In this document: positions 1 to 45,590 of the stretch, one piece after another
Layout: the number at the start of each line of letters is the position of its first letter
Numbering within the stretch: position 1 is the stretch's first letter
Assembly (NCBI RefSeq): GCF_964355755.1
Contig: NC_092673.1
Location: 16,588,948-16,652,947, forward strand
DNA from: Antedon mediterranea
Lineage: Eukaryota > Animalia > Echinodermata
Direction of reading: 5' to 3'
Length of the DNA: 64,000 bases
Translations under genes and position numbers: made by a program
The notes under the pieces: model-generated
Databases searched by the model: none
The model's input: the letters and a program-made list of their open reading frames with translations, nothing else
What the model was told of the DNA's origin: nothing

Positions 1-589
1 CTATCTTTGGTACAGTTCTTGACCATTCATTGATTGTTTCAGAATTTATTACCAGCATCGAACCGTGCTCCATTTTTATGTTCACAGGTTTAATGTTTTT
101 GTTGGTGCGGTGTTCGAATCTACAGATTCTAGTAGGTCCCAGAGACATAATGCATACAGGACTTATTTTGCTCCTTTGTACATCATTAAGATAGCATTCC
201 GCTGAATCCTCTGCTCTTGTCAAAGTTACCATATTGTAAAAATGACCAGTCGCAATGTGTATCCATTCACGCATTTCGAGTAGAAACTTTGGCCAGTAAC
301 ACAGAGGACTTCTCGCTGTGTCGTCGATGTTTGTGTGAACTCCTATTTGGAATGACAACTCCAAATCACCGTACGCTGCACATCTAATGTGATCTACTTC
401 AGTGATCACATCGCGTAACTTATATAGAGAATCGAATAAATGTGTTTTCCTACATTGTTTTAAAATAGTGTCTGCTATCAGTCTATGTAGCAGATGTACA
501 CGAACGCATTTCATGTTATCTTCCGGTCTGCATACGGTGTGTGAATGAAAGCCGAAATAAAACTCATCTTCTGACTGGCTGACGTTCAT
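1..589 (-). CDS. AlkB/ALKBH2-3-like 2OG-Fe(II) dioxygenase-fold protein, 3'-partial, probably catalytically inactive
   Basis: Manual translation from ATG 589 stays open to the window edge: ...AAYGDLELSF...WPKFLLEMREWIHIATGHFYNMVTL...SPVCIMSLGPTRICRFEH...MEHGSMLVINSETINEWSRTVPK. This is colinear with ALKBH2 motifs (TYGD, TGQTFNFVL, SPIASVSFGACRDF, LAHGSLLMM, WYHSLP). Confidence 0.75.
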   Translation of the reverse strand, partial: MNVSQSEDEFYFGFHSHTVCRPEDNMKCVRVHLLHRLIADTILKQCRKTHLFDSLYKLRDVITEVDHIRCAAYGDLELSFQIGVHTNIDDTARSPLCYWPKFLLEMREWIHIATGHFYNMVTLTRAEDSAECYLNDVQRSKISPVCIMSLGPTRICRFEHRTNKNIKPVNIKMEHGSMLVINSETINEWSRTVPKI

Positions 590-680
590 GATTACTTTAT
601 TGCTACAAGAATTCACTACAACTTCCAATTAAAGTTTGAAACTAAAACTCCATACTGGTCGATTTTTATACTTTGCGATG

Positions 681-1624
681 AAGGTTAACTACACGCGTTG
701 TCAACAAACAACGAAACCGATGAATGATTGTCGATTATACTGATGTGTATGTGTGGTGCGCGCTTTAAAATTCGTATTGAATATATCGTGCCTTCTCTTC
801 CTCCTACCCGGCTTAATTTGCGTATGGTTTTCGAATGATGATCATGAAACACACAAACGGGTGTAATTCCATCGTTAGTTACTTTAGTGTTACAATAAAA
901 CCGTCTCTCGGCAATATGATGGAAATAAGCGTCACTGTCGGTAAATGTATACACCGGTCCCAAAGAGTCAGGGTCAATTACTTTTTTTTAAGAAATATGT
1001 TTAATGTGTATTATTATTATTATAGTTTAATATAAGCGTATTTTATAAATTTAATCTCCATTGATTCTATCATCATATTTTAAAATCAAAATGCTATGTT
1101 TTAAATTCTATTTGGGTTTCTCTCTCTCTCTCTCTCTCTCTCCCTCTCCCTCTCCTTCTCTCCTTATTAATTTAGATTCGACTATGTAGAAACGGAATTT
1201 AATTTCCAAATTAAAACACTGCATTGTAACAATATTATAATCGGTCTGCTTTTCTTTTATCGATGATGACAATAGAAATAAGGGTAGGGCGTGTGTATGT
1301 ATCACCGCCGGTCAGTGTACACACCAGGTCACAAAGCTTTAAAGAAATATTTTTAATTGTTATCCCGAATATGTGTGTTAGAGTAATTCGTTTTGGTATA
1401 TAATCATTTTGGTATACTAACAATTTGAACAAGCTGCCTCTACGCGCCTAGTCGTAAATCCAATCCTAGATTCTATATTTACCGATATTGCGCCCCCTAT
1501 ATAGTTTTTGATAAATTACTAATAATGTTATGGTATCGATAGATTGTAAGCCAGCTGAATGGTTAGTTCTTGAGTCTCGTAATGTAACGCTGTAGCATTA
1601 GGCTAGGGTTCGAGAATTGATTTG

Positions 1625-1659
<35 letters not shown>

Positions 1660-2698
1660 TAATATTTGTTTTACTCACCATCTTCTTTATTGACCATAGT
1701 TAAGGTTAACTACACGCGATTTGTCAACAAACAACGAAACCGATGAATGATTGTCGATTACACTGATGTGTATGTGTGGTGCGCGCTTTTAAATTCGTAT
1801 TGAATATATCGTGCCTCCTCTTCCTCCTACCCGGCTTAATTTGCGTATGGTTTTCGAATGATGATCATGAAATACACAAACGGGTGTAATTCCATCGTTA
1901 GTTACTTTAGTGTTTCAATAAAACCGTCTCTGCAATATCATGGAAATAAGCGTCACTGTCGGTAAATGTATACACCGGTCCCAAAGAGTCAGGGTCAATT
2001 AATTTTTTAAAGAAATATGTTTAATGTGTATTATTATTATTATTATAGTTTAATATATTAAGCGTATTTTATAAATTTCATCTCCATCGATTCTACCATC
2101 ACATTTTAAAATCAAAATGCTATGTTTTAAATTCTATCTAGGTTTCTCTCTCTCTCTCTCTCTCTCTCTCCTTCTCTCCTTATTAATTTGGATTCGACTA
2201 TGTAGAAACGGAATCTTCTCTCCCTCTCCTTCTCTCCTTATTAATTTGGATTCGACTATGTAGAAACGGAATTTAATTTCCAAATTAAAACACTGCATTG
2301 TAACAATATTATAATCGGTCTGCTTTTCTTTCATCGATGATGACAATAGAAATAAGGGTAGGGCGTGTGTATGTATCACCGCCGGTCAGTGTACACACCA
2401 GGTCACAAAGCTTTAAAGAAATATTTTTAATTGTTATCCCGAATATGTGTGTTAGAGTAATTCGTTTTGATATATAATCATTTTGGTATACTAACAATTT
2501 GAACAAGCTGCCTCTACGCGCCTAGTCGTAAATCCAATCCTAGATTCTATATTTACCGATATTGCGCCCCCTATATAGTTTTTGATAAATTACTAATAAT
2601 GTTATGGTATCGATAGATTGTAAGCCAGCTGAATGGTTAGTTCTTGAGTCTCGTAATGTAACGCTGTAGCATTAGGCTAGGGTTCGAGAATTGATTTG

Positions 2699-2755
<57 letters not shown>

Positions 2756-3731
2756 ATATTTGTTTTACTCACCATCTTCTTTATTGACCATAGTTAAGGT
2801 TAACTACACGCGATTTGTCAACAAACAACGAAACCGATGAATGATTGTCGATTACACTGATGTGTATGTGTGGTGCGCGCTTTTAAATTCGTATTGAATA
2901 TATCGTGCCTCCTCTTCCTCCTACCCTGCTTAATTTGCGTATGGTTTTCGAATGATGATCATGAAATACACAAACGGGTGTAATTCCATCGTTAGTTATT
3001 TTAGTGTTTCAATAAAACCGTCTCTGCAATATGATGGAAATAAGCGTCACTGTCGGTTAATGTATACACCGGTCCCAAAGAGTCAGGGTCAATTACTTTT
3101 TTTTTAGAAATATGTTTAATGTGTATTATTATTATTATAGTTTAATATAAGCGTATTTTATAAATTTCATCTCCATCGATTCTATAATCATATTTTAAAA
3201 TCAAAATGCTATGTTTTAAATTCTATCTAGGTTTCTCTCTCTCTCTCTCTCTGCCCCTCTCCTTCTCTGCTTATTAATTTGGATTCGACTATGTAGAAAC
3301 GGAATTTAGATTCCAAATTAAAACACTGCATTGTAACAATATTATAATCGGTCTGCATTGCTTTTATCGATGATGACAATAGAAATAAGGGTAGGGCGTG
3401 TGCATGTATCACCGTCGGTCAGTGTACGCACCAGGTCACAAAGCTTTAAAGAAATATTTTTAATTGTTATCCCGAATATGTGTGATAGAGTGATTCGTTT
3501 CGATATATAATCATTTTGGTATACTAACAATTTGAACCTGCTGCCTCTACGCGCCCAGTCGTAAATCCAATCCTAGATTCTATATTTACCGATATTAAGC
3601 CCCTATATAGTTTTTGATAAATTACTAATAATGTTATGGTATCGATAGATTGTAAGCCAGCTGAATGGTTAGTTCTTGAGTCTCGTAATGTAACGCTGTA
3701 GCATTAGGCTAGGGTTCGAGAATTGATTTGA

Positions 3732-3762
<31 letters not shown>

Positions 3763-6376
3763 TTAATATTTGTTTTACTCACCATCTTCTTTATTGACCA
3801 TAGTTAAGGTTAACTACACGCGATTTGTCAACAAACAACGAAACCGATGAATGATTGTCGATTACACTGATGTGTATGTGTGGTGCGCGCTTTTAAATTC
3901 GTATTGAATATATCGTGCCTCCTCTTCCTCCTACCCTGCTTAATTTGCGTAGAGTTTTCGCATGATGATCATTAAACACACAAACGGGTGTAATTCCATC
4001 GTTAGTTACTTTAGTGTTTCAATAAAACCGTCTCGGCAATATGATGGAAATAAGCGACACCGTCGGTAAATGTATACACCGGTCCCAAAGAGTCAGGGTC
4101 AATTAATTTTTTTAATAAATATGTTTAATGTGTATTATTATTATTATTATAGTTTAATATATTAAGCGTATTTTATAAATTTCATCTCCATTGATTCTAT
4201 CATTCGTTTCGATATATAATCATTTGGTATACTAACAATTTCAACCAGCTGCCTCTACGCGCCTAGTCGTGTGTCTGTATCACCGTCGGTCAGTGTATAC
4301 ACCGGTCACCGGAACCGGTCACAAAGCTTTAAAGAAATATTTTTAATTGTTGTCCCGAATATGTGTGATAGAGTAATTCGTTTCGATATATAATCATTTT
4401 GGTATACTAACAATTTGAACAAGCTTCCTCTACGCGCCTAGTCGTAAATCCAATCCTATAGATTCTATATTTACCGATATTGCGCCCCTATATAGTTTTT
4501 GATAAATTACTAATACTGTTAGGGTATTGATAGATTGTAAGCCAGCTGAATGGTTAGTTCTTGAGTCTCGTTATGTAACGCTGTAGCCTTAGGCTAGGGT
4601 TCGAGAATTTATTTGATACATATATATATTTTTTTAATATTTGTTTTACTCACCATCTTCTTTATTGACCATAGTTAAGGTTAACTACACGCGATTTGTC
4701 AACAAACAACGAAACCGATGAATGATTGTCGATTACACTGATGTGTATGTGTGGTGCGCGCTTTTAAATTCGTATTGAATATATCGTGCCTCCTCTTCCT
4801 CCTACACTGCATAATTTATGCGTATGGTTTTTGAATGATGATCATGAAACACACAAACGGGTGTAATTCCATCGTAAGTTACTTTAGTGTTTCAATAAAA
4901 CCGTCTCTGCAATATCATGGAAATAAGCGTCACTGTCGGTAAATGTATACACCGGTCCCAAAGAGTCAGGGTCAATTAATTTTTTTAAGAAATATGTTTA
5001 ATGTGTATTATTATTATTATAGTTTAATATATTAAGCGTATTTTATAAATTTCATCTCCATCGATTCTATCATCACATTTTAAAATCAAAATGCTATGTT
5101 TTAAATTCTATTTAGGTTTCTCTCCCTCTCCTTCTCTCCTTATTAATTTAGATTCGACTATGTAGAAACGGAATTTAATTTTCAAATTAAAACACTGCAT
5201 TGTAACAATATTATAATCGGTCTGCATTGCTTTTATCGATGATTACAATAGAAATGCGGGTAGGGCGTGTGCATGTATCACCGTCGGTCAGTGTACACAC
5301 CAGGTCACAAAGCTTTAAAGAAATATTTTTAATTGTTATCCCGAATATGTGTGTTAGAGTGATTCGTTTCGATATATAATCATTTTGGTATACTAACAAT
5401 TTCAACCAGCTGCCTCTACGCGCCTAGTCATAAATCCAATCCGATATTGCGCCCCTATATAGTTTTTGATAAATTACTAATAATGTTATGGTATCGATAG
5501 ATGGTAAGCCAGCTGAATGGTTAGTTGTTGAGTCTCGTAATGTAACGCTGTAGCATTAGGCTAGGGTTCGAGAATTGATTTGATACACACACATATATAT
5601 ATATATATATATTTAATATTTGTTTTACTCACCATCTTCTTTATTGACCATAGTTAAGGTTAACTACACGCGATTTGTCAACAAACAACGAAACCGATGA
5701 ATGATTGTCGATTACACTGATGTGTATGTGTGGTGCGCGCTTTTAAATTCGTATTGAATATATCGTGCCTCCTCTTCCTCCTACCCTGTTTAAATTTGCG
5801 TATGGTTTTCGAATGATGATCAATGATTCAATAAAACCGTCTCGGCAATATGATGGATATAAGCGACACCGTCGGTAAATGTATACACCGGTCCCAAAGA
5901 GTCAGGGTCAATTAATTTTTTAAAGAAATATGTTTAATGTGTATTATTATTATTATTATAGTTTAATATATTAAGCGTATTTTATGAATTTCATCTCCAT
6001 CGATTCTATCATTCGTTTCGATATATAATCATTTGGTATACTAACAATTTCAACCAGCTGCCTCTACGCGCCTAGTCGTGTGTCTGTATCACCGTCGGTC
6101 AGTGTATACACCGGTCACCGGAACCGGTCACAAAGCTTTAAAGAAATATTTTTAATTGTTATCCCGAATATGTGTGATAGAGTAATTCGTTTTGATATAT
6201 AATCATTTTGGTATACTAACAATTTGAACAAGCTTCCTCTGCGCGCCTAGTCGTAAATCCAATCCTAGATTCTATATTTACCGATATTGCGCCCCTATAT
6301 AGTTTTTGATAAATTACTAATACTGTTATGGTATCGATAGATTGTAAGCCAGCTGAATGGTTAGTTCTTGAGTCTC
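681..6376. repeat. Tandem array of a ~0.9-1.1 kb unit, five full copies plus one partial
   Basis: Unit start AAGGTTAACTACACGCG recurs at 681, 1702, 2796, 3806, 4677 and 5656. Units contain variable (TA)n, (CT)n and (TTA)n tracts. Confidence 0.95.
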
Positions 6377-7095: not shown

Positions 7096-10000
7096 TCATA
7101 ACGTTTGTTTTGAGCACGTACACGGTGAAAGTTTCTTTTCACCAGTCTTGTAAACCAGTGGTCTGAATGCGTGCAGTTTGTCCTTTTCTATAATTGCATC
7201 TTCTACGAGTCTTATGTGGCGTAAATAAGTGTCCACGTCGTGTCCAAATCGTTCTCTCAGTTTAATCTCCGTACCATCGGACAACATTCTAATCCATGCT
7301 TTTCGTCGTTGAACGTGCGACGGTTCGGCTTCAAGAAATTGCGGTTCTTCTAACTTGAATCTTAATCTATCACGATCTACTACCTCGGTTGTTGGATTTC
7401 GAAGTGTTTGTGTCAGATACGGATTTTTACACTTGTGTACCGGTAGACTACCGCCGTTCTTTTCGGCCAATTGCTGAATGTCTAACGTCTGAAACACATC
7501 TCTTGTACTACGATCCACGTACATGATGGTTTTACGTTCAGTCATATTTTTAAACACGCACTTTTCCAATACACTCTTGATCATTGATTCGCCGGCTTTC
7601 ACTTTGTAATGCTTACACGCGTCTTCCAATGAATTCAACGTCAACAGATTTACGTGAAAGAATACGTTCGGTGGTGGTGTTTCCGAGATGATCGAAGAAG
7701 AATTGATCAAGTGTCTCAAGTCGTTTGTTAGCAAATTCACACCGTTTCTCAGCTCATCCGCCTCGAACTCGTCATTTACCAGAACGCGTATTCGATTACC
7801 TCGGCACGCGTTTTTATCTTCGAGCACAACCTTTGTGCACAATTCGAGTATTTTTTTCAAACGTCTATGTTGTGGCAAAAAGACGCTAACGTGTACCATA
7901 AAGGCTCGAGCGTTCGACGTTTCCAATACCAATCTGCACGTGTGATCGTTGTTCATCACCGGCGGTGGCATCGGTAGTCTATCTCTGCTACCGTCATATG
8001 ATCTGCATTTCAACACCCTTAAACTGTCGGCAATCTCTTTCACGTCAACACCGACCGCAATTGATCCGTTTTCGTCGCAGTCTCCACTCACACACGATTG
8101 GATTGCGAGTTTCCTAACGTACGCCAGTCGGGTCTCGTGAAAATCTAAATTTATTTTTATCCAGTATCTTTCTTCGTTGGTAAACTTTTTCGGCACCGAT
8201 CCTAGATAATTGATGCTGGATTTGGGATCTTGAGAGTTTGACTGGCCCCAGTACATATGTCGAGCGAAGACGGGCAAATGAGACAAGAAGCGTGCGGCTT
8301 GTGTAAGTTTTCCATTGAGCATAACGTATATGTAATGTTTTCCCCTGTACTGTTTTGCATTGCACATTCCTGCCATCATCACGTCCGATATTTCACGGTA
8401 CTCGTTTGCATGTGACGAAAGATGAGCTTCCGTTGCCTCGCTACATTTGAACAGAAGCTGTTTTTGTCCGTTATCGTCCATTTTTCGAAACAACTTACTC
8501 CGTCCACTGTGCATAGCCAACAATATTTCCTTACATTGTTTGCGAGCAACACCCGTTTTGCGCTCTAAAATGGACAGAAGCGCCTCTTCGCTCCTGCACG
8601 TCAATTCAAAGTAAGTTTCACCATCTCGATGAACGGGATCATGAGAAGGATCAATCAACTGATCCGCTATCGTTCTCACGATTATCAGTTCGTTCTGTGG
8701 CATCGGACACATTAACGAAAATGCAAACAAAATATCAGCAGGATCCGGCTGCGCCTCGGACATTACCATGTCGTGTAGTCGCTTCATGTCCTGTTGCATC
8801 AGCCACCGTTGATGTTTGGCTATGATTCTTGAATTGAGACAACAAGTGTTCTCGTTCGGTAATCGAGGTGTATTGGCGTGCAGACTTTGTAACGGACAGC
8901 CGTTCACTTGAATCACTGCATTGTGAAAGGCGCACAAACGTGCCAGGTCGATGAGTTTATTGATGGTTCTAGTTTCTGTGGCGAATCCGAATCGGACTCC
9001 TTGCCTTTCCAATTCGACAGATATTCTATCGCAAGTCAACAGTAGCATACGATCGTCTTTGTACGAATCTCCTTCCGATCGACGTGGATACAGACCGCAC
9101 TCTGCCAACCGTACATGTTCCATTACTTTGTGGCGCAGAGCGCCGAATTGCGTTCGAATTTTTAAACGATCCAATTCCTTCTCGTATCCCTCCATTTTCT
9201 TGGGCACGTTGACAACACCACTGGGTGCCACGTCAAAAGTGACAACTCGTTCGTTTAACGAGTTACACAAGTTTTTTTCGTTCATGGCCATTATGGTGGC
9301 ATTATCGCAAACGTTGATTACGGTTCGAACACCGTGTCGAGTGGTTCCCGTGTTCGGATCCGTTACCTTCTCGGTTCGTTCGGTGCGCGTACAGCCGGAA
9401 TCGAGTTCCTCTTTCATTATTGCCGCTTCTTGACTGCTTTCAATTGACAACGGATTCTTATCGCTTTTAGATCCAGACGACGGTGGCACAAATTCGTTCA
9501 TGAAGCGTATTTTTTTTGAATTTTTGTACTTTCGCTCATTATCGACGAGCACGGCTTTCTGTGTTCGGTAAGTAACGTCGTCTGAGTAAGCGTTACCGAT
9601 TACAGATTTAGCGGCTACCATCACAGACGTTTTACCCGTACCGGGAGGTCCAACCAGAATGGCGTGCATGGCCATCGCATCGTGTGGGCATACGATACGT
9701 ATAGCCGACAGTAAAATGTACAAAAGTTCACCTTTAGCGTTAGACACACCGGCCACATTACCTATCAGAGCCACCATGTTCAAAAGATATCGATAACCTA
9801 TCGATATTTTCACGTCAGTTTCCTCTTCGTATACGAATGGAACAAAACTGCCGTCACTGTGTCTAGACGCGTTCATACACCAACCCTTCATCTCGTTATC
9901 CCACATATCGGCATACGATTGCGTTATTACTTCGCTCATTTGCACGTGTCTTCCCATATGCACTTGCGTGTACATGTCAAAGAAAATTTTGCCGACAGTC

Positions 10001-11451
10001 TTGTCACGGTATCTTTCCGGAGTCAATTGCAAATTGTGAAAAATCTTTCTCATCATCACTATGCCCGGATTCTTTGCCGTGTATTTTTCACCGTATAAAT
10101 GCCTATTAAGAAAAAAAAAAAAACAAAAAACAAAACGAAAACAATTATAAATCAAAAGTAAAACACGCACACTACAATTTGTGTTGTGGTGATGATGATG
10201 ATGATGATGATGATTATAAAATACGTACCTCGAGTCTATGGTCACTTCGTTCTGATTCTGGTTGGTTACATACAGTTTTCCGATTGCCGAAATTTTGTCT
10301 TCGTCCAATTGCGCTGCATCATCGCGCATAGCGTGAACAAACAATTTTGTATTACCAATGTTCGTATCACTTTCAAGTGCAGGAAAGTGTCTTTTCAAAA
10401 AATAATTCGCCTCGTACATGTGAGGTTCCAATATCCACGCTTTCATATGTTGGAAGCTTACACAACGACTATCGCCTTCGTTCATTATAACTCTCGGATC
10501 AATCTGTTGCAAAGACAGTTTAAGAGTCGGAGGTAGATTCAATTCTTTGTCGGCAATTGTCATCAACTGATCGAGAGTTAGCGCATTACTCGATTCATTT
10601 GCAATCAAACGTGTCAGCTCACGTCGATGAGTTGCACGTCTAGATGACGAAAAAAGAGTCTTTGGTGTAAACAGATCTGCGCGCTTTTGCCACGCCTCTG
10701 CTGTATCTTGTTCTCTAACAGTCGGGGGCAATCGATTGCCTTCGATTTTCGGTATGTCTAAACAGAAATATTTTTCAATGCTTCTTTCAAAATCCCCGAG
10801 CACTGTCACGTGTGGAACATAGCTATTTATCTTGGTTCGTTTCATTTGCGACGTTCCACGACCCAATCGGCAATCGAAATGTTTAAATGCATATTTTATT
10901 GTCGCCGTTGCTGAATCGTTTCGTTTACGTTTTGTCTTTTTACGTTTCGGTTCATTATCATCATCATCGTCGTCATCATCATCATCATCATCATCAAGAT
11001 CGTTGTCGGAAAACATTTCGCATCGGACGTCTGTCAAGAATGTTGTGTCCCATGCTGGCAGGTATCCGTTGTTTATCAACAGTATGGACTTGACAACGTA
11101 CTGTAACATTTTGTGCAAACGTCGTGGGAAGATCAACCAGAACACGTAACCGCACGACACCTTACCCCGAACCGTTTCATCCACGATGCGACTAGGTTCA
11201 ATAAGAGAGCACACCAGTGCGTGCTGTTCATCGTTGCAGTGCAACTGTAACGCTTTTCTCAACAACACCATCATCATTATGTACGTATGCGGGGAGCAAT
11301 TGCGCAGCGAGTTTGTCGGTATTTCAAACGATTTCAACTCGACGCACATGATGTGCATGGGTTCACCAAACACAATATCGTCCGTAATTCGACTGCCCGG
11401 CCATAATTCACATGGCAGTAGATCATCGGCTGTACTCTCAGATTTACTCAT
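7096..11451 (-). CDS. Large divergent MCM-like AAA+ ATPase/helicase (~1400 aa) with a probable 126-nt intron at 10103-10228
   Basis: Walker A AILVGPPGTGKTS, Walker B-like RFMNEF, then AAIMKEELDSG (cf. MCM AIHEAMEQQ), sensor-1 IMAMN (cf. LAAANP), Arg finger SLNERV (cf. ALLSRF) and sensor-2 TRTINKLIDLA (cf. ARQLESLIRLS). First ATG is at 11451. Confidence 0.7.
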   Translation of the reverse strand: MSKSESTADDLLPCELWPGSRITDDIVFGEPMHIMCVELKSFEIPTNSLRNCSPHTYIMMMVLLRKALQLHCNDEQHALVCSLIEPSRIVDETVRGKVSCGYVFWLIFPRRLHKMLQYVVKSILLINNGYLPAWDTTFLTDVRCEMFSDNDLDDDDDDDDDDDDDNEPKRKKTKRKRNDSATATIKYAFKHFDCRLGRGTSQMKRTKINSYVPHVTVLGDFERSIEKYFCLDIPKIEGNRLPPTVREQDTAEAWQKRADLFTPKTLFSSSRRATHRRELTRLIANESSNALTLDQLMTIADKELNLPPTLKLSLQQIDPRVIMNEGDSRCVSFQHMKAWILEPHMYEANYFLKRHFPALESDTNIGNTKLFVHAMRDDAAQLDEDKISAIGKLYVTNQNQNEVTIDSRYVFYNHHHHHHHHHNTNCSVRVLLLIYNCFRFVFCFFFFLNRHLYGEKYTAKNPGIVMMRKIFHNLQLTPERYRDKTVGKIFFDMYTQVHMGRHVQMSEVITQSYADMWDNEMKGWCMNASRHSDGSFVPFVYEEETDVKISIGYRYLLNMVALIGNVAGVSNAKGELLYILLSAIRIVCPHDAMAMHAILVGPPGTGKTSVMVAAKSVIGNAYSDDVTYRTQKAVLVDNERKYKNSKKIRFMNEFVPPSSGSKSDKNPLSIESSQEAAIMKEELDSGCTRTERTEKVTDPNTGTTRHGVRTVINVCDNATIMAMNEKNLCNSLNERVVTFDVAPSGVVNVPKKMEGYEKELDRLKIRTQFGALRHKVMEHVRLAECGLYPRRSEGDSYKDDRMLLLTCDRISVELERQGVRFGFATETRTINKLIDLARLCAFHNAVIQVNGCPLQSLHANTPRLPNENTCCLNSRIIAKHQRWLMQQDMKRLHDMVMSEAQPDPADILFAFSLMCPMPQNELIIVRTIADQLIDPSHDPVHRDGETYFELTCRSEEALLSILERKTGVARKQCKEILLAMHSGRSKLFRKMDDNGQKQLLFKCSEATEAHLSSHANEYREISDVMMAGMCNAKQYRGKHYIYVMLNGKLTQAARFLSHLPVFARHMYWGQSNSQDPKSSINYLGSVPKKFTNEERYWIKINLDFHETRLAYVRKLAIQSCVSGDCDENGSIAVGVDVKEIADSLRVLKCRSYDGSRDRLPMPPPVMNNDHTCRLVLETSNARAFMVHVSVFLPQHRRLKKILELCTKVVLEDKNACRGNRIRVLVNDEFEADELRNGVNLLTNDLRHLINSSSIISETPPPNVFFHVNLLTLNSLEDACKHYKVKAGESMIKSVLEKCVFKNMTERKTIMYVDRSTRDVFQTLDIQQLAEKNGGSLPVHKCKNPYLTQTLRNPTTEVVDRDRLRFKLEEPQFLEAEPSHVQRRKAWIRMLSDGTEIKLRERFGHDVDTYLRHIRLVEDAIIEKDKLHAFRPLVYKTGEKKLSPCTCSKQTL

Positions 11452-16547: not shown

Positions 16548-17120
16548 TTACGAGTGTACTTTTAACCGATGTTTACCGTTTCGCGACGACCAACATTTCT
16601 TCGTGGACAGTGCAGTAACGAATACGGTGTTTGGACGACTGTACTTTAGACAGAGTAAATAGACGAACGTAACTGTAGCTATGAGCATAGAAGACCATGT
16701 TAATAGGGCAGGAATCCAGATTGAAATTGGAATTCTGCCTATGAAATTCAAGTTAAAGTCAGACATTGCCTTTCCAAGTGCCCGAGCAGGAATTTCTATC
16801 AAGCTAGAAACGGTCTTGGCAAACGCTTCAACCGGCGAAACGGACAGGATCGGATGTACTACATAGTTTCTGTGATATTCGGTACATTCGTCTCTTTCTT
16901 CTATAAAGATATTTGTTCGCAACCACGACACAAACACATTCATCGTATCAGCATTCTCTGTGATTCGTCTCTGTTGCTTTTCACATTTGTTGACAAGCTG
17001 TGTCATCTCGGCCCGATTAACCGCCACTCTCTCTCTGTACAATAATAACCAATTCCATGGAACACTTACAACGAATAAAACAATAAATACGTCGAAAATC
17101 AATCCTCTTAGCTTCAACAT
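16548..17120 (-). CDS. CLCC1 (chloride channel CLIC-like 1)/Brl1-Brr6-like membrane protein, minimal viral-type form
   Basis: VSVPWNWLLLYR...KC...VSWLR...RDECTEYHRNYVVHPILSVSPVEAFAKTVSSLIEIPARALGKAMSDF...IPISIWIPALL matches the CLCC1 core ISFLWNWMYLYK...VC...WEWFR...[29 protein letters not shown]...EPLKHIGKG..EF...IP..L.LPVL. Intronless, ~190 aa. Confidence 0.85.
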   Translation of the reverse strand: MLKLRGLIFDVFIVLFVVSVPWNWLLLYRERVAVNRAEMTQLVNKCEKQQRRITENADTMNVFVSWLRTNIFIEERDECTEYHRNYVVHPILSVSPVEAFAKTVSSLIEIPARALGKAMSDFNLNFIGRIPISIWIPALLTWSSMLIATVTFVYLLCLKYSRPNTVFVTALSTKKCWSSRNGKHRLKVHS

Positions 17121-17240: not shown

Positions 17241-18378
17241 GGCTCGTGTCATAACAAACGGAGCCTTGTGTTGAAATTATAATTCTTTCAAGGCAATTAA
17301 GATACGACCCGAATTCAATAGATTACTTCCGAATTCAATAGATTATCAACAATTAAAAAACAGCCTTTGAAGTTCAGTGGACAATTACCGGTACTTTGGT
17401 TCTATTCAATATCCACAACACATTCGCCTTGAATACCATTAGTCATTATTAATGGATCTACATTAAATTTTACACACTTAAACAATGAATTCAATGAATT
17501 ACCACATCACATTTTAAATATTCTTAATTACTGTGACAGTATTAGGCCTACTCATAACCTCAGAACAGAAACTGAATTCGAAATTCCCTTCACAAGACTA
17601 ACTTGCAGTCAACAGTTTATACACATATATGGACCAAAATTGTGGAAAGAATTCACTTGTAATGGTGGTAATAAACCGGTTATCTTAAAGAAACAAAATA
17701 AATGTATAAAAAAACAGGTTAAAAAATACTTTTTATCACTATATGCTGATTAACAACACCTTTGTTTATTTAAGTTCTATATACTTGTTCTTATGTAAAA
17801 GGGTCCTACAAAAAAACGAAGCTATAGCTTTTTTATGCAGGATCCCTGTTCTCAGTTGTACTGTAATTATGATGTACTGTAGTTGATGACTAAATAAATG
17901 TGGAATAAATGAAATGAAAATAAATGAATACGAATAAAGATTACACTTTAATTTCTTTCAATTTTATTATCATCTTCATATATAAAATCAACCATTAAAA
18001 ATTGCATAATTATGTTGATTAATGGATTATTTTGAGCACACAATCTGTTAACATAACTCACTTCTACTCTTAGATCATGATTAGGCCTATACAAATTCTT
18101 ACACATTCTTCTTCGTTTTCAATAACTATCCTCGCCGTCAGAATCTTCGTCTATCTCCCATCCAGTCTTTAGTATCCTCATCCTCATTTTCACTTACCCC
18201 ATTTTCTTCAGCCCCTCACCGAGTAAAAAAAAAAAAATCCTGAATGTATGTAAGCCTAGCTAGTCGATGAACAGGGCCGTATCGTCAGCAATAGCAAGAA
18301 GGCCAGCATTTAAAGCGTCAGCTAATTATAGCAATATAGCTTTTGCGACACAAAGCTCCTTTCGTGGTGACGCGACCC
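17241..18378 (-). mobile_element. Non-autonomous DNA transposon (Sola1-like, 4-bp AWWT TSD), copy 1
   Basis: Imperfect TIRs GGCTCGTGTCATAACAAACGGAGC / GCTCCTTTCGTGGTGACGCGACCC flanked by TSD AAAT (17237-40, 18379-82). Inverted relative to copy 2 at 48875-50194. Confidence 0.75.
17491..17922 (+). mobile_element. Short 3' LINE fragment nested in the Sola-like element
   Basis: Encodes HNLRTETEFEIPFTRLTCSQQFIHIYGPKLWK (LINE ORF2 C-terminus type) with a GAAAT-type tail. Flanked by AATGAAT on both sides and absent from the homologous position of copy 2. Confidence 0.75.
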
Positions 18379-24834: not shown

Positions 24835-25369
24835 GTCTTTCTCACTCTCTCTCTCTCTCTCTCCTCCCTCGACATTCTCAATCACATTTATAGTCATAAC
24901 ATTCTGTCGTCGTCATCACGTTGAAAGAGAGAAAAACACAATATATATTTTTTTCTTTCAAACGTTTAATTTTATTGTCACTACTGTACTATTACTACAA
25001 TGTTTATTGCTGCATTGAATTGATTACTACTACAATATAATTTTAAGTTTTCTCAATGGATTCGTTGTTACTACGATTTAGTGTTACTGTCAAGAGGTAT
25101 CTTTCTATAAAACTATAGCAAGTTCGGTATACGTTTCTGTCTGCAGAAATGATGTACATATAGTATAGAGTGTGCTATATAGAGTATCTTGTGTAAACAT
25201 GTTTTGCCAACCGAAATGTTTAGTCTAGTGACTTTAACGTTGCGCACAGCCATCGGTTCAAGGTGTGTCAAGGACATGCATTTTTTTTTTCAATAGTTGA
25301 GAGAGAATATTTAGAGGGTTAGGTTTGTATAATTAGAAAGTACACTATCATGTAGCACAATTAAATATT

Positions 25370-25729
25370 TTTTTATTATTATTATAATATTAATCTCCAT
25401 TCTTTAAGCTTTCGAAAAAATAATGTAACTTGCTTTATAATTTCTTTCAAGGCAATTAAGATATGACCCGATTTCAACAAAGCACTTCCGAATTCAACAA
25501 AGCACTTCCGAATTCAATAGATTATCAACAATTAGAAAACAGCCTTTGAAGATTTTACACCCTTAAACAATGAAACCTTAGTCTCTTGCGCTTTATAAAT
25601 GTTATTTATTATTTATTATTATTAATACGAATAAAGATTACACTTTAATTTCTTTTAATTTTATTATCATCTTCATATATAAAATCAACAATTAAAAATG
25701 CATAATTTTTATTGATTAATGGATTATTT
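25370..25729 (-). mobile_element. Partial third copy of the Sola-like element, truncated by the adjacent TIR element
   Basis: Matches 17280-18030 (without the LINE insert) and the reverse complement of 49750-50140. Confidence 0.7.
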
Positions 25730-27227
25730 TAGTCCAGTCAAAAAATCACCCTCACCATGGTATAAGAACGTACCCTAATAAAATTTCATCCGTAGGTTCT
25801 ATGTATATAGGTAATAACATTTCTTGATGTTGCGTCTTGCAAAACTTGGGATTTTACGAGAAAATTAGACTTAATATTATTAGAAAGTATTTAATACTTA
25901 AAAAAGGAGAATTGGGTAATACAGTATGTAGTTTCTCGCGAATCTTACATCACACTCCAACATTCTCACTCTCTCTTTTATTTAGTGGAAAAACACTTTA
26001 ACTTTAGAATGCTTTGAATTCTGGAAGACGACTTCGAACTTAAAGAATCGTCATGAATGAAGTTTATTGGCTCAAACTTCACACATCGGTACGATGTGAA
26101 GGCCAGACGGATTCAGAGAGGATCAAACCGGCTCCTCCTCCCCATTGGCAGTGGGCAGCGGTGGGTGGCGGCGGGTGAAAGGGGAAAATGAAAAATGTTG
26201 ATTCAGACGAATGCCAACCAGCCCCTTTGATACGCTCTTAATAATTGTTGGAAAGTGAAAGTAGGTCTACTTGAGGTAGTATCTTTCGTATAGGAGGCGC
26301 GCCTACGCGAAATGGATTATCCTTAAATAATTGGTTCTTACTCTAATTAAGATTATAATCGCGAATGATAGTTCAAAATATGCAATGCATTGTGATATTC
26401 ACGCAAGTAGGCCTAATGCTGTGGAAAAAAAAGAATGTCCAAAATAAAACCAGCGGAACTATCTATCATTACGCTTCAGCAGATATACAAATATACACTT
26501 AATCCATCATGATGGTATACTGGAGGTTGTAATGTGTTTAAATATATACAATCCGTTTTTCCATGATAAAAAATATAAATACATTTGTGAAAATATAATA
26601 ATAATATTCTGCCTCTTGCAGAGGCAATAACTAACAAACCGCATCGGGTTTCGTATATTAATGCCGTGTACTGTGTAACCATCCGGCCATACAAGTCCGA
26701 TAAAAGTATGACAAAAACCGCATCGGGTTTCGTATATTAATGCCTTGTATATATATAATCATCCATACAAGTCCGATAAAAGTATGACGCGTGAGGGCGC
26801 ACTTTATTCTATGAAAGGCCATTTTGATTTGTACATTTTTAAACACATATCTGTAAATATTTTAGTTTATAATTGGGTTTTGTTTATAATTTTATGTATT
26901 TTATTATACAATTTATTGTAAACTATATTTAAATTTTTGTATAAACTATTAATTTTGTAGGTTTTTAGCTTTGTTAATGCATTTTTCAACGGGCGCTAAC
27001 GGCGTCTCGTAATTTCAGTCACGCTTCGTCGCATTTGCTGTACACAATAATACGACATGAGGCGGTTATAAATTGGGTATAAAAAGTCTAATTTTCTCGT
27101 AAAATCCCAAGTTTTGCAAGACGCAACCATCAAGAAATGTTATTACCTATATACATAGAACCTACGGATGAAATTTAATTAGGGTACGTTCTTATACCAT
27201 GGTGAGGGTGATTTTTTGACTGGACTG
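25730..27227. mobile_element. Non-autonomous DNA transposon with ~140-bp near-perfect TIRs (possibly Academ-type termini)
   Basis: AGTCCAGTCAAAAAATCACCCTCACCATGG...GAAAATTAGACTT (25731-25872) is the reverse complement of 27084-27226. No TSD identified. Confidence 0.8.
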
Positions 27228-29268: not shown

Positions 29269-29493
29269 GATGACTACTGACGAATGCACGGTGAGCGAGT
29301 TAACGTATATATAGACCCAAACAGCCAATCAACGTCCAGCTTGAATAAGCGGTGTTGACTACCATTTGAAGATGATGCGTTGTTTTTTTGTTGTTTTTTT
29401 TGTTCACGCTGCTGTTTTTCGTAATGCAATAAGAGTATCGATTAGAGTGTATTTGTGTACGTGTACATTGGAGAGAAAGAGAATGCTTTTGTC

Positions 29494-29896
29494 ATGCAAT
29501 CTGTTTCCCGTATAGTGGCGAGAAGACCTAACAATTACCTGATTTCAGCTATACTCGTGACTTTATTATGCTGTATTCCATTCGGTATTATAGGAATCGT
29601 GTACAGCGTAGATGTAAGTAATCTATTTCCTCTACAACCTCATCCCATCACCACTTTTTTTTAAATTTTTTTAATCTATTTTAGTTTCTATTCTTTTACT
29701 TTTACAGAGTTCGAGAAAGTTCGACTACGGTGACAGTGAGGGTGCAGCCAGATCAGCACGATCGGCAAAGAGATGGTCTATTGCAGGATTGCTGTTTGGA
29801 ATCATCATCATCGTCGTCGTTTGCATCATATGGACCTTGAACTCAAGTCTACCTAATCATTCCACTCACCCTCCTTCGTTACAAGACATCATGTGA
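29494..29896 (+). CDS. CD225/dispanin (IFITM/PRRT-like) protein, 2 exons (29494-29613, 29708-29896), 102 aa
   Basis: PNNYLISAILVTLLCCIPFGIIGIVYSVD|SSRKFDYGDSEGAARSARSAKRWSIAGLLFGIIIIVVV is the canonical CD225 pattern (P.NYL, CC.P.G, GD..GA...S..AK). The intron is GTAAGT...TTACAG, phase 0. Confidence 0.9.
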
Positions 29897-36120: not shown

Positions 36121-36345
36121 GATGACTACTGACGAATGCACGGTGAGCGAGTTAACGTATATATAGACCCAAACAGCCAATCAACGTCCAGCTTGAATAA
36201 GCGGTGTTGACTACCATTTGAAGATGATGCGTTGTTTTTTTGTTGTTTTTTTTGTTCACGCTGCTGTTTTTCGTAATGCAATAAGAGTATCGATTAGAGT
36301 GTATTTGTGTACGTGTACATTGGAGAGAAAGAGAATGCTTTTGTC

Positions 36346-36748
36346 ATGCAATCTGTTTCCCGTATAGTGGCGAGAAGACCTAACAATTACCTGATTTCAG
36401 CTATACTCGTGACTTTATTATGCTGTATTCCATTCGGTATTATAGGAATCGTGTACAGCGTAGATGTAAGTAATCTATTTCCTCTACAACCTCATCCCAT
36501 CACCACTTTTTTTTAAATTTTTTTAATCTATTTTAGTTTCTATTCTTTTACTTTTACAGAGTTCGAGAAAGTTCGACTACGGTGACAGTGAGGGTGCAGC
36601 CAGATCAGCACGATCGGCAAAGAGATGGTCTATTGCAGGATTGCTGTTTGGAATCATCATCATCGTCGTCGTTTGCATCATATGGACCTTGAACTCAAGT
36701 CTACCTAATCATTCCACTCACCCTCCTTCGTTACAAGACATCATGTGA
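36346..36748 (+). CDS. Second intact copy of the CD225/IFITM-like gene (exons 36346-36465, 36560-36748)
   Basis: Sequence, splice sites and stop match copy 1. Confidence 0.85.
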
Positions 36749-38329
36749 TTCAAGCGAGAGGCAGTTGAAAACATTTGTATTTGATAATACATATATAACA
36801 GCGTTGTTGTTGTTGAATGATTATGTTTTTTTTTTTTTCAAAAATAAATAATATGTGCATATAAATAATTTTTTTCTGTCTTGCATTTTGGTACACGCAT
36901 TGTAATAATGTAATGATTTTGTTGTGGTAGTTTTTTTTTTCTAAAGAATTATCGAACGAATGCTAAATGACCAAGTTTAATGCGTTTACAATAAAATACA
37001 TGCACTGTCCTTGGTGCGTGGGTATTGAAGAATAGTTTTGTCATAAAACTGTTAAAGATCATTTCATACATCGAATGAATGCAATTGTCTTAAACGGCAA
37101 GTTAGATATTATAACGCGCCTCCTATAATGCGCACCTTTGGCAACTGTATCGGTATTGAAAATGTTTTGGCATCGTTTGCCATCGTATAATGAACCTTGG
37201 TATCAAGTTCTAAACCAATTTCAACTCACCCTCCTTCGTTAAAAGATTATCATGTGATTGAGAGCGGTAGAGGTAATGAATTACTATTTCCTAATTTTAT
37301 ATACTGTAACATCTAAATGAACATTCTAGAATGTGTTTAGATTTTAAGAAACCGTGTATAATAATTATTATAAAAACATTCCAAAAGTATCTATTATTTT
37401 TGTTCTAAAGAATTATCGAACGAATGATTGATGATGACCAAGTTGAATGCGTTTACAATAAGAGATATACACTGTCCTCCTTTGTGCTGGGTGTATTGAA
37501 GAATAATTTTCTCATAAAACGGTTAAAGGGTCATTTCATATATCGACCAAATGCAAACGGGTACCAGTTTTCTGTCTCTTTTTTGTTCTAAAGAATTATC
37601 GATGACAGATGACCAAGTTGAATGCGTTTACAATAACAGCCACGCACTGTCCTCTTTGGTGCGCGTGTATTGAAGAATAATTTTCTCATAAAACTGTTAA
37701 AAGGGTCATTTCATACATCCAATGAATGCAAACGGGTACCAGTTTTCTGTCTCTTTTTTGTTCTAAACAATGATGACAGATGACCAAGTTGAAAGCGTTT
37801 ACAATAAGAGACATGCATTGTCCATTGGTGCGGGAGTATTGAAGAATGGTTTTGTCATACAACTGTTAAAGGGTCATTTCATACATCGAACCAATGCAAT
37901 TGTCTTAAACGGCAAGTTAGATAATATATCTCGCCTATAATGCGTGCCTCTGTCACTCGGTATTGAATATGTTTAACCGTCATCATAAAATTTTCCAACA
38001 TTATACAGTAACATGTACATGGACATTCTAGAATGTGTTTAGATTTTAAGAAACCGTGTATAATAATTATTATAAGAACAATCAGAAACATTCCAAAAGT
38101 ATGATTAGAAACTGTAATACCAATAGAGTAAGAAGTATCATCTAAAAGGTTACGAACATATCGTATACAAGAAGAGGGAACGGGTAGTGTTCTCTCTCCG
38201 TTTGGGTGAACTGAATGCTTGAAAACATTGACTCGCGCTGTTTCCTGAAGTATGCTATCATTAGAAACTGTAATCGAATAGAATAAGAAGTATGATCTGG
38301 AAAGTTATAAACATTATTGTATATATACA

Positions 38330-41300
38330 ACAGGCGACGAATGCACGGCATGTTATGCCTCTTATTGATTGCACGACCTTATCAGTTCATTCGGTAAAGA
38401 GACGGTGTATGTATCTACATGAACATTCTAGAATAAGAGTGTGTTTGGATTTAAGAAACCATGTATAATAATTATACAACACGCGATGAATGCACGGCAT
38501 GTTATGCATGTTACTGATTGCGCGGCCTTCCTTATCAGCTCGATTGGTAAGGAGACGGTGTATTGCTTCTTCTCGAAGTAAAAAAAAAAAAAAGATTTTC
38601 ATCCGTTCTCTCGATATACAACCCACGACAAATGCACGGCATGTTATGCCTCTTATTGATTGCACGACCTTATCAGTTAGTTCGGTAAAGAGACGGTGTA
38701 TGTATCTACATGAACATTCTAGAATAAGAGTGTTTTTGGATTTAAGAAACCATGTATAATAATTATACAACACGCGATGAATGCACGGCATGTTATGCCT
38801 GTTACTGATTGCGCGGCCTTATCAGCTCATTCGGTAAAGAGACGGTGTATTGCTTCTTCTCGAAGTAAAAAAAAAAAAAAAATATTTTCATTTGTTCTCT
38901 CGATATACAACACACGACGAATGCACGGCATGTTATGCCTCTTATTGATTGCACGACCTTATCAGTTCATTCGGTAAAGAGACGGTGTATGTATCTACAT
39001 GAACATTCTAGAATAAGAGTGTGTTTGGATTTAAGAAACCATGTATAATAATTATACAACACGCGATGAATGCACGGCATGTTATGCCTGTTACTGATTG
39101 CGCGGCCTTATCAGCTCATTCGGTAAAGAGACGGTGTATTGCTTATTCTCGAAGTAAACAATATTTTCATTTGTTCTCTCGATATACAACACACGACGAA
39201 TGCACGGCATGTTATGCCTGTTACTGATTGCGCGACCGTATCAACTCGATCGGTAAAGAGAGGGTGTATTGCTTCTTCTCGAAGTAAACAATATTTTCAT
39301 TTGTTCTCTCGGTATTCAACACGCGATGAATGCACGGCATGTTATGCCTCTTATTGATTGCACGACCGTATCAGTTCATTCGGTAAAGAGACGGTGTATG
39401 TATCTACATGAACATTCTAGAATAAGAGTGTGTTTGGATTTAAGAAACCATGTAGGCCTATAATAATTAATATAAGAACAATCAGGACCATTCCTGAAGT
39501 ATGCTATCATTAGAAACTGTAATCGAATAGAATAAGAAGTTTGATCTGGAAAGTTATAAACATTATTGTATATATACAACAGGCGACGAATGCACGGCAT
39601 GTTATGCCTCTTATTGATTGCACGATCGACCTTATCAGTTCATTCGGTAAAGAGACGGTGTATGTATCTACATGAACATTCTAGAATAAGAGTGTGTTTG
39701 TATTTAAGAAACCATGTATAATAATTATACAACACGCGATGAATGCACGGCATGTTATGCCTGTTATTCATTGCGCGACCGTATCAACTCGATCGGAAAA
39801 GAGACGGTGTATTGCTTATTCTGGAAGTAAAAAAAAAAATATTTTCATTTGTTCTCTCGGTATACAACACGCGATGAATGCACGGCATGTTATGCCTCTT
39901 ATTGATTGCACGACCGTATCAGTTAGTTCGGTAAAGAGACGGTGTATGTATCTACATGAACATTCTAGAATAAGAGTGTGTTTGGATTTAAGAAACCATG
40001 TATAATAATTATACAACACGCGATGAATGCACGGCATGTTATGCCTGTTATTCATTGCGCGACCGTATCAACTCGATCGGTAAAGAGACGGTGTATTGCT
40101 TATTCTCGAAGTAAAAAAAAAAATGTTCATTTGTTCTCTCGATATACAACCCACGACAAATGCACGGCATGTTATGCCTCTTATTGATTGCACGACCTTA
40201 TCAGTTAGTTCGGTAAGGAGACGGTATATGTATCTACATGAACATTCTAGAATAAGAGTGTGTTTGGATTTAAGAAACCATGTATAATAATTATACAACA
40301 CGCGATGAATGCACGGCATGTTATGCCTGTTACAGATTGCGCGGCCTTATCAGCTCATTCGGTAAAGAGACGGTGTATTGCTTATTCTCGAAGTAAACAA
40401 TATTTTCATTTGTTCTCTCGATATACAACACACGACGAATGCACGGCATGTTATGCCTGTTACTGATTGCGCGACCGTATCAACTCGATCGGTAAAGAGA
40501 GGGTGTATTGCTTCTTCTCGAAGTAAACAATATTTTCATTTGTTCTCTCGGTATTCAACACGCGATGAATGCACGGCATGTTATGCCTCTTATTGATTGC
40601 ACGACCGTATCAGTTCATTCGGTAAAGAGACGGTGTATGTATCTACATGAACATTCTAGAATAAGAGTGTGTTTGGATTTAAGAAACCATGTATAATAAT
40701 TATACAACACGCGATGAATGCACGGCATGTTATGCATGTTACTGATTGCGCGGCCTTATCAGCTCATTCGGTAAAGAGACGGTGTATTGCTTATTCTCGA
40801 AGTAAAAAAAAAAAAGATTTTCATCCGTTCTCTCGATATACAACCCACGACAAATGCACGGCATGTTATACCTCTTATTGATTGCACGACCTTATCAGTT
40901 CATTCGGTAAAGAGACGGTGTATGTATCTACATGAACATTCTAGAATAAGAGTGTGTTTGGATTTAAGAAACCATGTATAATAATTATACAACACGCGAT
41001 GAATGCACGGCATGTTATGCATGTTACTGATTGCGCGACCGTATCAACTCGATCGGTAAAGAGACGGTGTTATTGCTTATTCTCGAAGTAAAAAAAAAAA
41101 TATTTTCATTTGTTCTCTCGGTATACAACACGCGATGAATGCACGGCATGTTATACCTCTTATTGATTGCACAACCGTATCAACTCGATCGGTAAAGAGA
41201 CGGTGTATGTATCTACATGAACATTCTGGAATAAGAGTGTGTTTGGATTTAAGAAACCATGTATAATAATTATACAACACGCGATGAATGCACGGCATGT

Positions 41301-44397: not shown

Positions 44398-45021
44398 TCA
44401 TTGCCATAGACTGATTTTGTTTTTTAAGTCGATTCTTCCACTTTTTTCCAATGCATTCATTAATGATTGCAGTTTGTCTGATTTTTGGCAGCATGAATCT
44501 CTCTTGCGCCATATAACAAGCATTTCTTGATTACGTTCCCGACTACAAATGTAATGAGCCTGACGTAAATCTTGTTGTTGAGCGAGTGAAATTCCTAAAT
44601 ATGTTGCTATCATTGACCAATCATTGCCCAGCTCTCTTGCCAACTCGGAAATACGCAGATCTGTGAGTGGTCCAAAGTCTTCACCTGAAACACACACAAA
44701 AAAAAATTAAAAAAAATAAGCTATTATAAATTTTTTATTTATTTATTTTTTTAAATTTTTTAATTTTTGTCATTTCTCAAGAATCATAATACCTTCGGTG
44801 AGCGTTTCACTCTGATCGTTGTTTTCATACACTATCTTTAATTCATCGTTGAAATGCGCTGACCGAGCACGTTTCAATGCTGAATATGACTCCTCGGCAA
44901 CATGCCTTTTAAAATTGTTCAACTTGGCATCAAAACCATCAGATACCTGGTTAATGTACAAGTTTTTGGCTTTAGACGTAGCATACCCCTGGTCTCCAAT
45001 TAAGCCCTGTTCTGAATCCAT
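44398..45021 (-). CDS. Death-domain protein, 2 exons (45021-44793, 44684-44398), 171 aa, possibly FADD-like
   Basis: Exon 2 LTDLRISELARELGNDWSMIATYLGIS...NQEMLVIWRKR...LQSLMNALEKSGRIDL is a classic death domain. A phase-1 GT...TTTCAG intron at 44792-44685 joins the two ORFs in frame. Confidence 0.85.
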
Positions 45022-45046
45022 AACCAAACTTATGAAACGTGTGTGG

Positions 45047-45077
<31 letters not shown>

Positions 45078-45257
45078 CAAATTAATAATACACCAGCTGC
45101 ACAGGCTCATTTACATAACATAGCGGTCATCACAAACGCAAATCCTAGACCGGAACCGTACAAACGGGATTGTTGACAGAGAATCATTCCGGTACTATAA
45201 ATTGATGTGCGTATAAACGAGAAAGTCACTTCAAAAAAAGAAATATTGTTGAACAAG

Positions 45258-45590
45258 ATGTTAAAGAGAAACGGTGGTTTTGATGTTGATAAATTGATCG
45301 TTTTGGCCAAAAATTATTTGGAAAACGAGGAAAAAGTTGAACGTGAATATCCGGAAACATTTAGCAACGCAGAATTGAAAACTGAAATCAAGAATCAAGT
45401 TGATAAGGTGAAATGTCGCAGCGCCAAGTCATTACACGATCTGCTCGTGGGCATGTTTGAAGACGGCCACGTGAATGAGGGCCGCATTATTGTCACACTT
45501 CACGTTGCACGTGAATTTGCTAGTTCCAGTAAAAACAAGGAGGAATATTCTGAAACGTTAACCACATTTCTTAAGCAGTTATTGAAGTGA
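45258..45590 (+). CDS. Minimal Bcl-2-like protein (~110 aa)
   Basis: BH1-like GMFEDGHVNEGRIIVTLHVA (cf. ELFRDGVNWGRIVAFFEF), preceded by VEREYPETFS (cf. FSRRYRRDFA/VEKNLKSCL region). No BH2 or TM tail is visible. Confidence 0.7.
   Translation: MLKRNGGFDVDKLIVLAKNYLENEEKVEREYPETFSNAELKTEIKNQVDKVKCRSAKSLHDLLVGMFEDGHVNEGRIIVTLHVAREFASSSKNKEEYSETLTTFLKQLLK

Follow-up and report, generated by a model that had tools for sequence, protein, structure and literature searches.

An ORF of 190 codons in the window, that is, the whole stretch of 64 kb of DNA analyzed here, encodes what is with near certainty a homologue of CLCC1, pared down to the core of that protein. In the explanation that we consider best, to which we give a probability of about 0.5, this two-helix CLCC1 core is carried by an element likely related to herpesviruses, was likely captured from an echinoderm, and is predicted to act as a fusogen in nuclear egress. 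The fusing of the inner nuclear membrane with the outer one, as in pore assembly and herpesvirus exit, has only recently been tied to CLCC1 and Brl1/Brr6 (PMC13061601). A natural version of 190 residues, apparently under selection, makes the sufficiency of the core shared by these proteins directly testable.

The mini-CLCC1 gene and its protein

The original prediction described a 190-residue ORF without intron and of CLCC1/Brl1 type, and both parts of this description hold. A single open frame runs from ATG to TAA with no intron in the body of the ORF, and the product (mini-CLCC1, or P0001) matches the Pfam family PF05934 (MCLC) at E 2.9e-16, residues 11-154 aligning with model positions 214-349 of 549. 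This profile match, which had been proposed as a check, scores 59.8 bits against a curated cut-off of 25. The parts of the gene are as follows:

16548..17120, minus strand: mini-CLCC1 ORF (P0001), 190 aa, bare membrane-fusion h-shaped (MFH) core (ORF, Pfam, AlphaFold2)
17034..17120, minus strand: first membrane helix, residues 1-29, equivalent to TM2 of cellular CLCC1, with K3/R5, S19 and WNW (hydropathy, alignment)
16884..16985, minus strand: fist domain, residues 46-79, with displaced C46, helix 59-71 (F63, W66, L67, I71), D77 and C79 (alignment, model)
16734..16835, minus strand: long amphipathic helix, residues 96-129, containing P96 and P111 and flanked by P90 and P131, all four invariant (alignment, model)
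16641..16727, minus strand: second membrane helix, residues 132-160, equivalent to TM3 (model, hydropathy)
16551..16640, minus strand: tail, residues 161-190, short, low-confidence and Lys/Arg-rich (alignment, model)

An in-frame stop lies 11 codons 5' of the ATG, with a weak AG upstream. Two other short proteins, P0002 and P0003 (193 and 197 aa, 59% and 51% identical to P0001, respectively), have the same start Met and the same M-L-x-x-R-G pattern, their start sites being gene-caller predictions; given the shared Met and the upstream stop, the start of mini-CLCC1 looks genuine. The tails of P0002 and P0003 are richer in Arg than that of P0001.

Hydropathy scanning finds two membrane segments in mini-CLCC1 (residues 1-29 and 130-158) and four in crinoid CLCC1, namely the signal peptide and TM1-3. 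In the AlphaFold2 model, built on a 12-sequence alignment (mean pLDDT 76.3, pTM 0.46), helices span residues 2-55, 59-71, 78-86, 96-129 and 132-160, and the order of membrane helix, fist domain, long amphipathic helix and second membrane helix is the Brl1/Brr6 layout. The WNW-x2-LY membrane helix (W22-N23-W24-x2-L27-Y28), the amphipathic helix (hydrophobic moment 1.75-1.79 over residues 96-129) and the second TM had all been foreseen, and are borne out by alignment, hydropathy and AlphaFold2. Four prolines are invariant in all 12 aligned sequences. The claim that the CLCC1 core alone is kept and the long terminal regions are gone was correct as far as it went; TM1 is gone as well.

By spacing, the residues S19, D77, C79 and Y82 stand where human CLCC1 has S224, D277, C279 and Y282. 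Human mutants at four positions bear on HSV-1 egress, and S19, D77 and C79 account for three of these, again by spacing, C279 having been tested only within a double mutant (PMC12639132). Two conserved cysteines had been proposed, of which C79 stands, being invariant in 12 of 12 sequences, while C46 is displaced: it follows the conserved Ser by 27 residues, three residues early in comparison with the 30 found in 51 of 94 measurable relatives. The Cys-Cys spacing, measurable in 94 of 139 CLCC1 cores, is 33 in P0001, the longest among those 94, and ordinary in the two short relatives (30 and 27). The fist region of mini-CLCC1 holds one Cys pair; human CLCC1 with C254A does not rescue egress (PMC12639132). 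Also, the four aromatic positions of the fist helix (PMC12639132) align to T59, V64, L67 and I71, in the register of newt P0018, with F63, W66 and F72 near these non-aromatic positions. The displaced C46 and the reduced fist-helix aromatics would, on sequence grounds, count against a fusogen. A compensated frameshift behind the displaced cysteine was rejected, as the other two frames show no family-like Cys motif. Base differences inside the ORF, found in runs X6, X8 and X10, are synonymous in five of eight cases against 23% expected (p 0.018, a small count), which suggests that mini-CLCC1 is under apparent purifying selection.

Relatives and origin of the core

Viral CLCC1 is already known. 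Herpesviruses captured the gene three separate times, and their copies (vCLCC1) include IcHV-1 ORF16A, OsHV-1 ORF57, AbHV ORF90 and AngHV-1 ORF112; all 15 viral rows in supplementary file 4 of the same paper are from mollusc or fish herpesviruses (PMC12639132). Its accessible text reports no fusion test of a viral CLCC1, and the authors allow distinct functions (PMC12639132). The background of the original prediction, covering CLCC1, Brl1/Brr6, HSV egress and the fish and mollusc herpesvirus copies, agrees with these accounts as far as they are accessible (PMC12639132, PMC13061601). Like vCLCC1, mini-CLCC1 is shortened and probably virus-borne, and has the fist domain, the amphipathic helix and TM3, but vCLCC1 keeps TM1-TM2-FD-AH-TM3 and an N-terminal part (334 and 316 aa), whereas mini-CLCC1, with 190 aa, begins at TM2 and is smaller than the herpesvirus copies because TM1 is also missing. 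It differs from cellular CLCC1 in lacking the signal peptide, the lumenal N-domain, TM1, the long tail and introns within the ORF, and in its displaced first Cys.

The MFH domain common to CLCC1 and yeast Brl1/Brr6 comprises human residues 204-378 (PMC13061601), and mini-CLCC1 covers almost exactly this shared domain. Brl1/Brr6 have the same two-membrane-helix layout with a lumenal knuckle and an amphipathic helix, but two Cys pairs where mini-CLCC1 has one; a third helix has been named as a difference (bioRxiv 10.1101/2025.07.21.665908). No Pfam match to the Brr6 family was found for mini-CLCC1 at E up to 1. Mini-CLCC1 is thus a metazoan CLCC1 by descent, its likeness in size to Brl1/Brr6 being convergent.

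Among viral predicted structures, the four best matches to mini-CLCC1 reach E 7.8e-7 to 1.3e-3, the next standing at 0.11; these four are proteins of 268-334 aa, and the one that is named is OsHV-1 ORF57 (E 5.3e-4). Solved structures gave no sequence match, and a wide fold search returned generic helical matches only (best Z 6.7). A four-copy complex prediction scored 0.07, with a mark of 0.32, for a run that made no use of the alignment and falls outside the calibration; the ring models in the literature use 16-mers (PMC12639132, PMC13061601). All seven viral-contig scans came back empty, the queries being P0001, the three-sequence alignment, the P-loop gene described below, its alignment, both neighbors on contig L001 (see below), and IcHV-1 ORF16A.

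A search of 1.84 billion representatives gave 204 matches at E up to 1e-3, the best 150 of which were inspected. Among the matches listed, the crinoid Anneissia japonica provides the best cellular one with its CLCC1 (XP_033109258.1, E 3e-28), followed by the next cellular protein at E 3e-15; pairwise, P0001 and XP_033109258.1 are 41% identical over 150 residues (E 4e-37). Identity to IcHV-1 ORF16A is 28%. Trees were computed from the core of 139 of 153 proteins, 14 having been left out for short coverage. Every tree unites the three short proteins in a clade (support 99, and 100/99 in a 46-row tree with rows chosen from the 139). In the 46-row tree they join the crinoid protein (98/78) and then crinoid plus sea cucumber (96/91); in a 28-row tree they group with crinoid and sea cucumber (95) and then with sea urchin (94). 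P0001 sits on a longer branch (0.70) than the two others (0.37 and 0.40). Starfish is placed elsewhere in the tree, and the deep branches are therefore unreliable.

A shared origin with IcHV-1 ORF16A and its ictalurid clade is rejected by the AU test (p 0.003 and 0.001), which makes a further, separate CLCC1 capture likely. Neither a pairing of crinoid and sea cucumber to the exclusion of the short proteins (p 0.82) nor a grouping of the three echinoderm proteins (p 0.21) is rejected, and for this reason a specifically crinoid donor is not secured. We contend that the donor was likely an echinoderm and, judging by similarity, our first guess would be a crinoid. Of about 20 matches looked up from the tree rows, none was identified as coming from a malacoherpesvirus or an eel herpesvirus. 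A phylogeny of cellular and viral CLCC1s had been proposed earlier, and it unites P0001-P0003 with echinoderm CLCC1 and not with IcHV-1 ORF16A. The description of mini-CLCC1 as the best lineage clue in the window does not survive this result: given the repeated captures by herpesviruses and the echinoderm grouping, the gene points to a donor host and a life-style and is a poor lineage marker. The gene at 7096-11451, discussed below, is the better clue to the virus lineage.

Near-identity to host CLCC1, as expected of a retrocopy, was not seen, the best cellular relative being 39-41% identical in a comparison with CLCC1s other than the host's own. The observed/expected ratio of CpG is 1.30 in mini-CLCC1, 1.06-1.66 in 12 other long ORFs of the element and 0.28 in the decayed transposon region. 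A recent retrocopy was rejected, since mini-CLCC1 is closer to the short proteins than to cellular genes, has the CpG content of the element and shows mostly synonymous variants. Very probably it belongs to the element and is not a host gene.

The element and its Allo56-like gene

The window contains compact ORFs, tandem-repeat blocks and animal-type passenger genes (CD225, death domain, Bcl-2-like and F-box). Its features other than mini-CLCC1 are:

2-628, minus strand: AlkB-like 2OG-Fe(II) oxygenase fragment (Pfam E 0.004)
681-6376: tandem array of roughly 1-kb units, beside the AlkB-like fragment
7096..11451, minus strand: P-loop (AAA+-like) gene, 1451 aa, candidate orthologue of the alloherpesvirus core gene Allo56 (Pfam, alignment, fold search)
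10103..10228, minus strand: predicted in-frame GT-AG intron of 126 nt within the Allo56-like ORF (three relatives gapped there)
17283-18324, 25368-25730 and 49566-50191: intergenic repeat at three dispersed sites, inverted at one of them
17484..17922, no strand assigned: piece of 439 bp upstream of mini-CLCC1, missing from the X5 and X6 contigs and from the internal repeat copy near 49.8 kb
29446-29893 and 36298-36745, plus strand: CD225/IFITM-like gene of two exons, split by a GT-AG intron and present twice inside a duplicated block
38323-43892: large tandem array of 130-285-bp units, possibly an origin or terminal-type repeat region
44401-45081, minus strand: death-domain gene (Pfam E 2.5e-10), probably spliced
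45258-45590, plus strand: Bcl-2-like ORF (E 1.7e-4), head to head with the death-domain gene
56700-60700, minus strand: decayed pieces of DUF1280-type transposon (Pfam E 1.3e-7), strongly depleted in CpG
62579-63961, minus strand: ORF of 460 aa that matches no known family; it has an acidic stretch, and its end is basic and NLS-like

The death-domain and Bcl-2-like genes make up a cell-death control pair. Sequence of the window's stretch was found in 11 runs from six studies (four coded organisms), whose contigs include variants of 97-99% identity and repeats of very high depth between genes, a depth that is not read as copy number. In X6 and X8, a deletion of 4.3 kb brings the P-loop gene up against sequence immediately downstream of the CLCC1 gene. 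Together with the missing 439 bp, these variants, repeats and deletions suggest several partly decayed and presumably integrated copies. A single X6 contig spans the whole mini-CLCC1 ORF, and the rows shown list no gap within the ORF. In run X1, which has the best coverage, neighboring genes are covered and the filtered listing shows no contig over 16268-17230, which counts as evidence neither way.

The P-loop gene at 7096-11451 has an intact Walker A, AAA+-like motifs and a predicted winged-helix part (about residues 930-1010), and three full-length relatives are 37-56% identical to it in the core. The top viral match in its fold search is Allo56 of lake sturgeon herpesvirus (E 2.3e-5, probability 0.99, 1155 columns), obtained with a model of mean pLDDT 39 and limited by a TM-score of 0.15 and an rmsd of 36 A. 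It is the sole viral match of the model below E 1e-3, with an E-value about 150-fold better than the next row; ORF111 of ranid herpesvirus 2 ranks ninth (probability 0.82). A fold search of the PDB with the same model gave no match below E 1e-3, and the clusters that the Atlas places nearest to the P-loop core (0.92) are of phage or bacterial origin. Allo56, of unknown function, belongs to the twelve core proteins of alloherpesviruses (PMC12567609); its gene measures 4383 bp in AciHV-3, against 4356 bp for 7096-11451. If the latter is an Allo56 orthologue, it would provide a first functional lead for that core gene, as an ATPase and perhaps a helicase. The accessible part of one survey reports no SF6 helicases from eukaryotic viruses (PMC4889955).

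A first metagenome scan gave no match, and a second, over 46 of 64 parts, yielded at least one locus. This contig, L001 (1-5770), carries a relative of the P-loop gene (28-31% identical, E 2e-129) and, adjoining it, a terminase-like ORF (Atlas 0.97, with TerL_ATPase on 11% of the cluster; PHROG terminase E 0.0012; no Pfam match). The frame of the latter passes a GTAAGT and then drifts into a non-coding-looking, intron-like stretch; a search for longer relatives, a weak test, found none, and none in phages. We take the facing ORF to be primase-like by its motifs; it has no profile match. Alloherpesviruses have their primase gene next to a terminase exon (PMC12567609), an arrangement that the gene set of L001 fits. 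L001 is another member of the same undescribed virus group, and no CLCC1 gene is present in its 5.8 kb.

Neither capsid, portal, triplex, protease, polymerase nor terminase genes were recognized by Pfam or PHROGs in the 64-kb window, which is a part of the element and in which divergent copies can escape profiles. Similarly, no piggyBac transposase and no core gene besides the Allo56-like one were recognized within it. We regard a relationship of the element to Herpesvirales as probable. The endogenous alloherpesviruses Teratorn and AciHV-3 are likewise large herpes-like elements with repeats, and multi-copy alloherpesvirus integration is known in fish; the present case differs in its likely echinoderm host and in that no piggyBac transposase was recognized in the window. 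Assembly of capsids in the nucleus and exit by envelope budding, as originally proposed, are predictions that fit three independent clues, namely the spliceosomal-type introns in element genes, the Allo56-like neighbor and the terminase-like gene beside that neighbor's relative.

Predicted role and rival explanations

That mini-CLCC1 is used for egress fusion has, in our estimate, somewhat better than even odds. Since the signal peptide and TM1 are missing, the first helix (residues 1-29) would act as an uncleaved signal anchor, leaving the N-terminus outside the lumen and placing the fist and the amphipathic helix in the ER/perinuclear lumen. Copies would form rings and curve the membrane in which they sit, and the fist helix would at the same time hold on to the membrane opposite, a picture drawn from models and mutants of CLCC1 in humans and Brl1 in yeast. 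The outer nuclear membrane would in this way be fused with capsid-bearing vesicles, and capsids budded through the inner nuclear membrane would lose their envelope. Loss of the lumenal dimerization domain, which forms disulfide-linked dimers, may bring freedom from host control. The product would then be a fusion ring that works by itself, produced in infected cells to free capsids from the perinuclear space.

It is unlikely, in our judgment, that mini-CLCC1 is instead a real gene of the element acting on host CLCC1 or ER lipid handling, either as a dominant-negative or decoy subunit in host rings or as a membrane-remodelling helper. Such a role would suit the missing dimerization domain and TM1 and the fewer fist-helix aromatics, as well as the presence of other host-modulating genes in the element (Bcl-2-like, death domain, CD225), and in human CLCC1 both D277R and mutants of the amphipathic helix have a dominant-negative effect (PMC12639132). 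However, S19, D77, C79 and the amphipathic helix are present in all three short proteins, Brl1/Brr6 function with the same layout of two helices, and a chimera of CLCC1 and Brl1 gives partial rescue of blebs (PMC13061601). It can also be speculated, at a low probability, that the family is a working viral fusogen and that the fist domain of the window's copy has degraded in an ageing endogenous element. The extreme Cys spacing among 94 relatives, the long branch of P0001, and the high-depth repeats and insertion/deletion variants between the element's genes are in line with such decay, but the frame is open, the X6 contig spans it, the variants are mostly synonymous and CpG is not depleted.

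The chances are also poor that the gene is viral and the element is not of herpes type, being mirusvirus-like or an otherwise unclassified large DNA element replicating in the nucleus. Morphogenesis genes of HK97 type, introns and a predicted replication in the nucleus are also described for mirusviruses (PMC12768974), and the phage or bacterial Atlas clusters around the P-loop core and the lack of a Pfam match for the terminase-like ORF point the same way. Against this stand the E-value margin of the Allo56 fold match, the animal-type passenger genes and the description of mirusviruses, in the accessible part of the literature, from unicellular eukaryotes. Very improbable is a processed pseudogene or a stray CLCC1 exon of the host in a repeat-rich region. 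The ORF does have no intron and high-depth repeats lie on its flanks, but its identity is higher to the short proteins (59% and 51%) than to the best of the cellular CLCC1s compared (41%, in a set outside which the host's own falls), and the start codon shared with those proteins, the apparent purifying selection and the CpG-rich make-up do not suit a pseudogene.

Beyond the egress fusogen that we favor, a more far-reaching proposal is tentative and, in our view, somewhat short of even odds. It holds that an undescribed echinoderm herpesvirus lineage, allied to the fish alloherpesviruses, made a fourth, independent CLCC1 capture and cut the protein back to a two-helix unit of 160 residues, convergent with Brl1/Brr6, as a natural minimal nuclear-envelope fusogen. 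If true, TM1 and the lumenal domain are dispensable for nuclear-envelope fusion. Another independent capture would also strengthen the case for egress fusion as a bottleneck in herpes-type viruses, and the element points to herpes-like viruses in echinoderms. In a literature search that covered little of the subscription journals, we found no description of a CLCC1 devoid of TM1, of an echinoderm donor, of an Allo56-bearing invertebrate element or of echinoderm herpes-like viruses. A 2023 study by Rosani et al. reportedly deals with invertebrate herpesviruses, and records of herpes-like sequences from echinoderms may exist already. Herpes-like sequences have been described from marine worms (PMC6950620).

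Five other shortened CLCC1s (P0107, P0118, P0132, P0082 and P0037), of 230-320 aa, with TM1 apparently kept and with Arg/Lys-rich tails, lie on contigs of 7-345 kb in ENA, Logan and JGI and may be further viral captures. A union of mini-CLCC1 and its two short relatives with P0107, P0118 and P0132 was neither found nor rejected (AU p 0.064).
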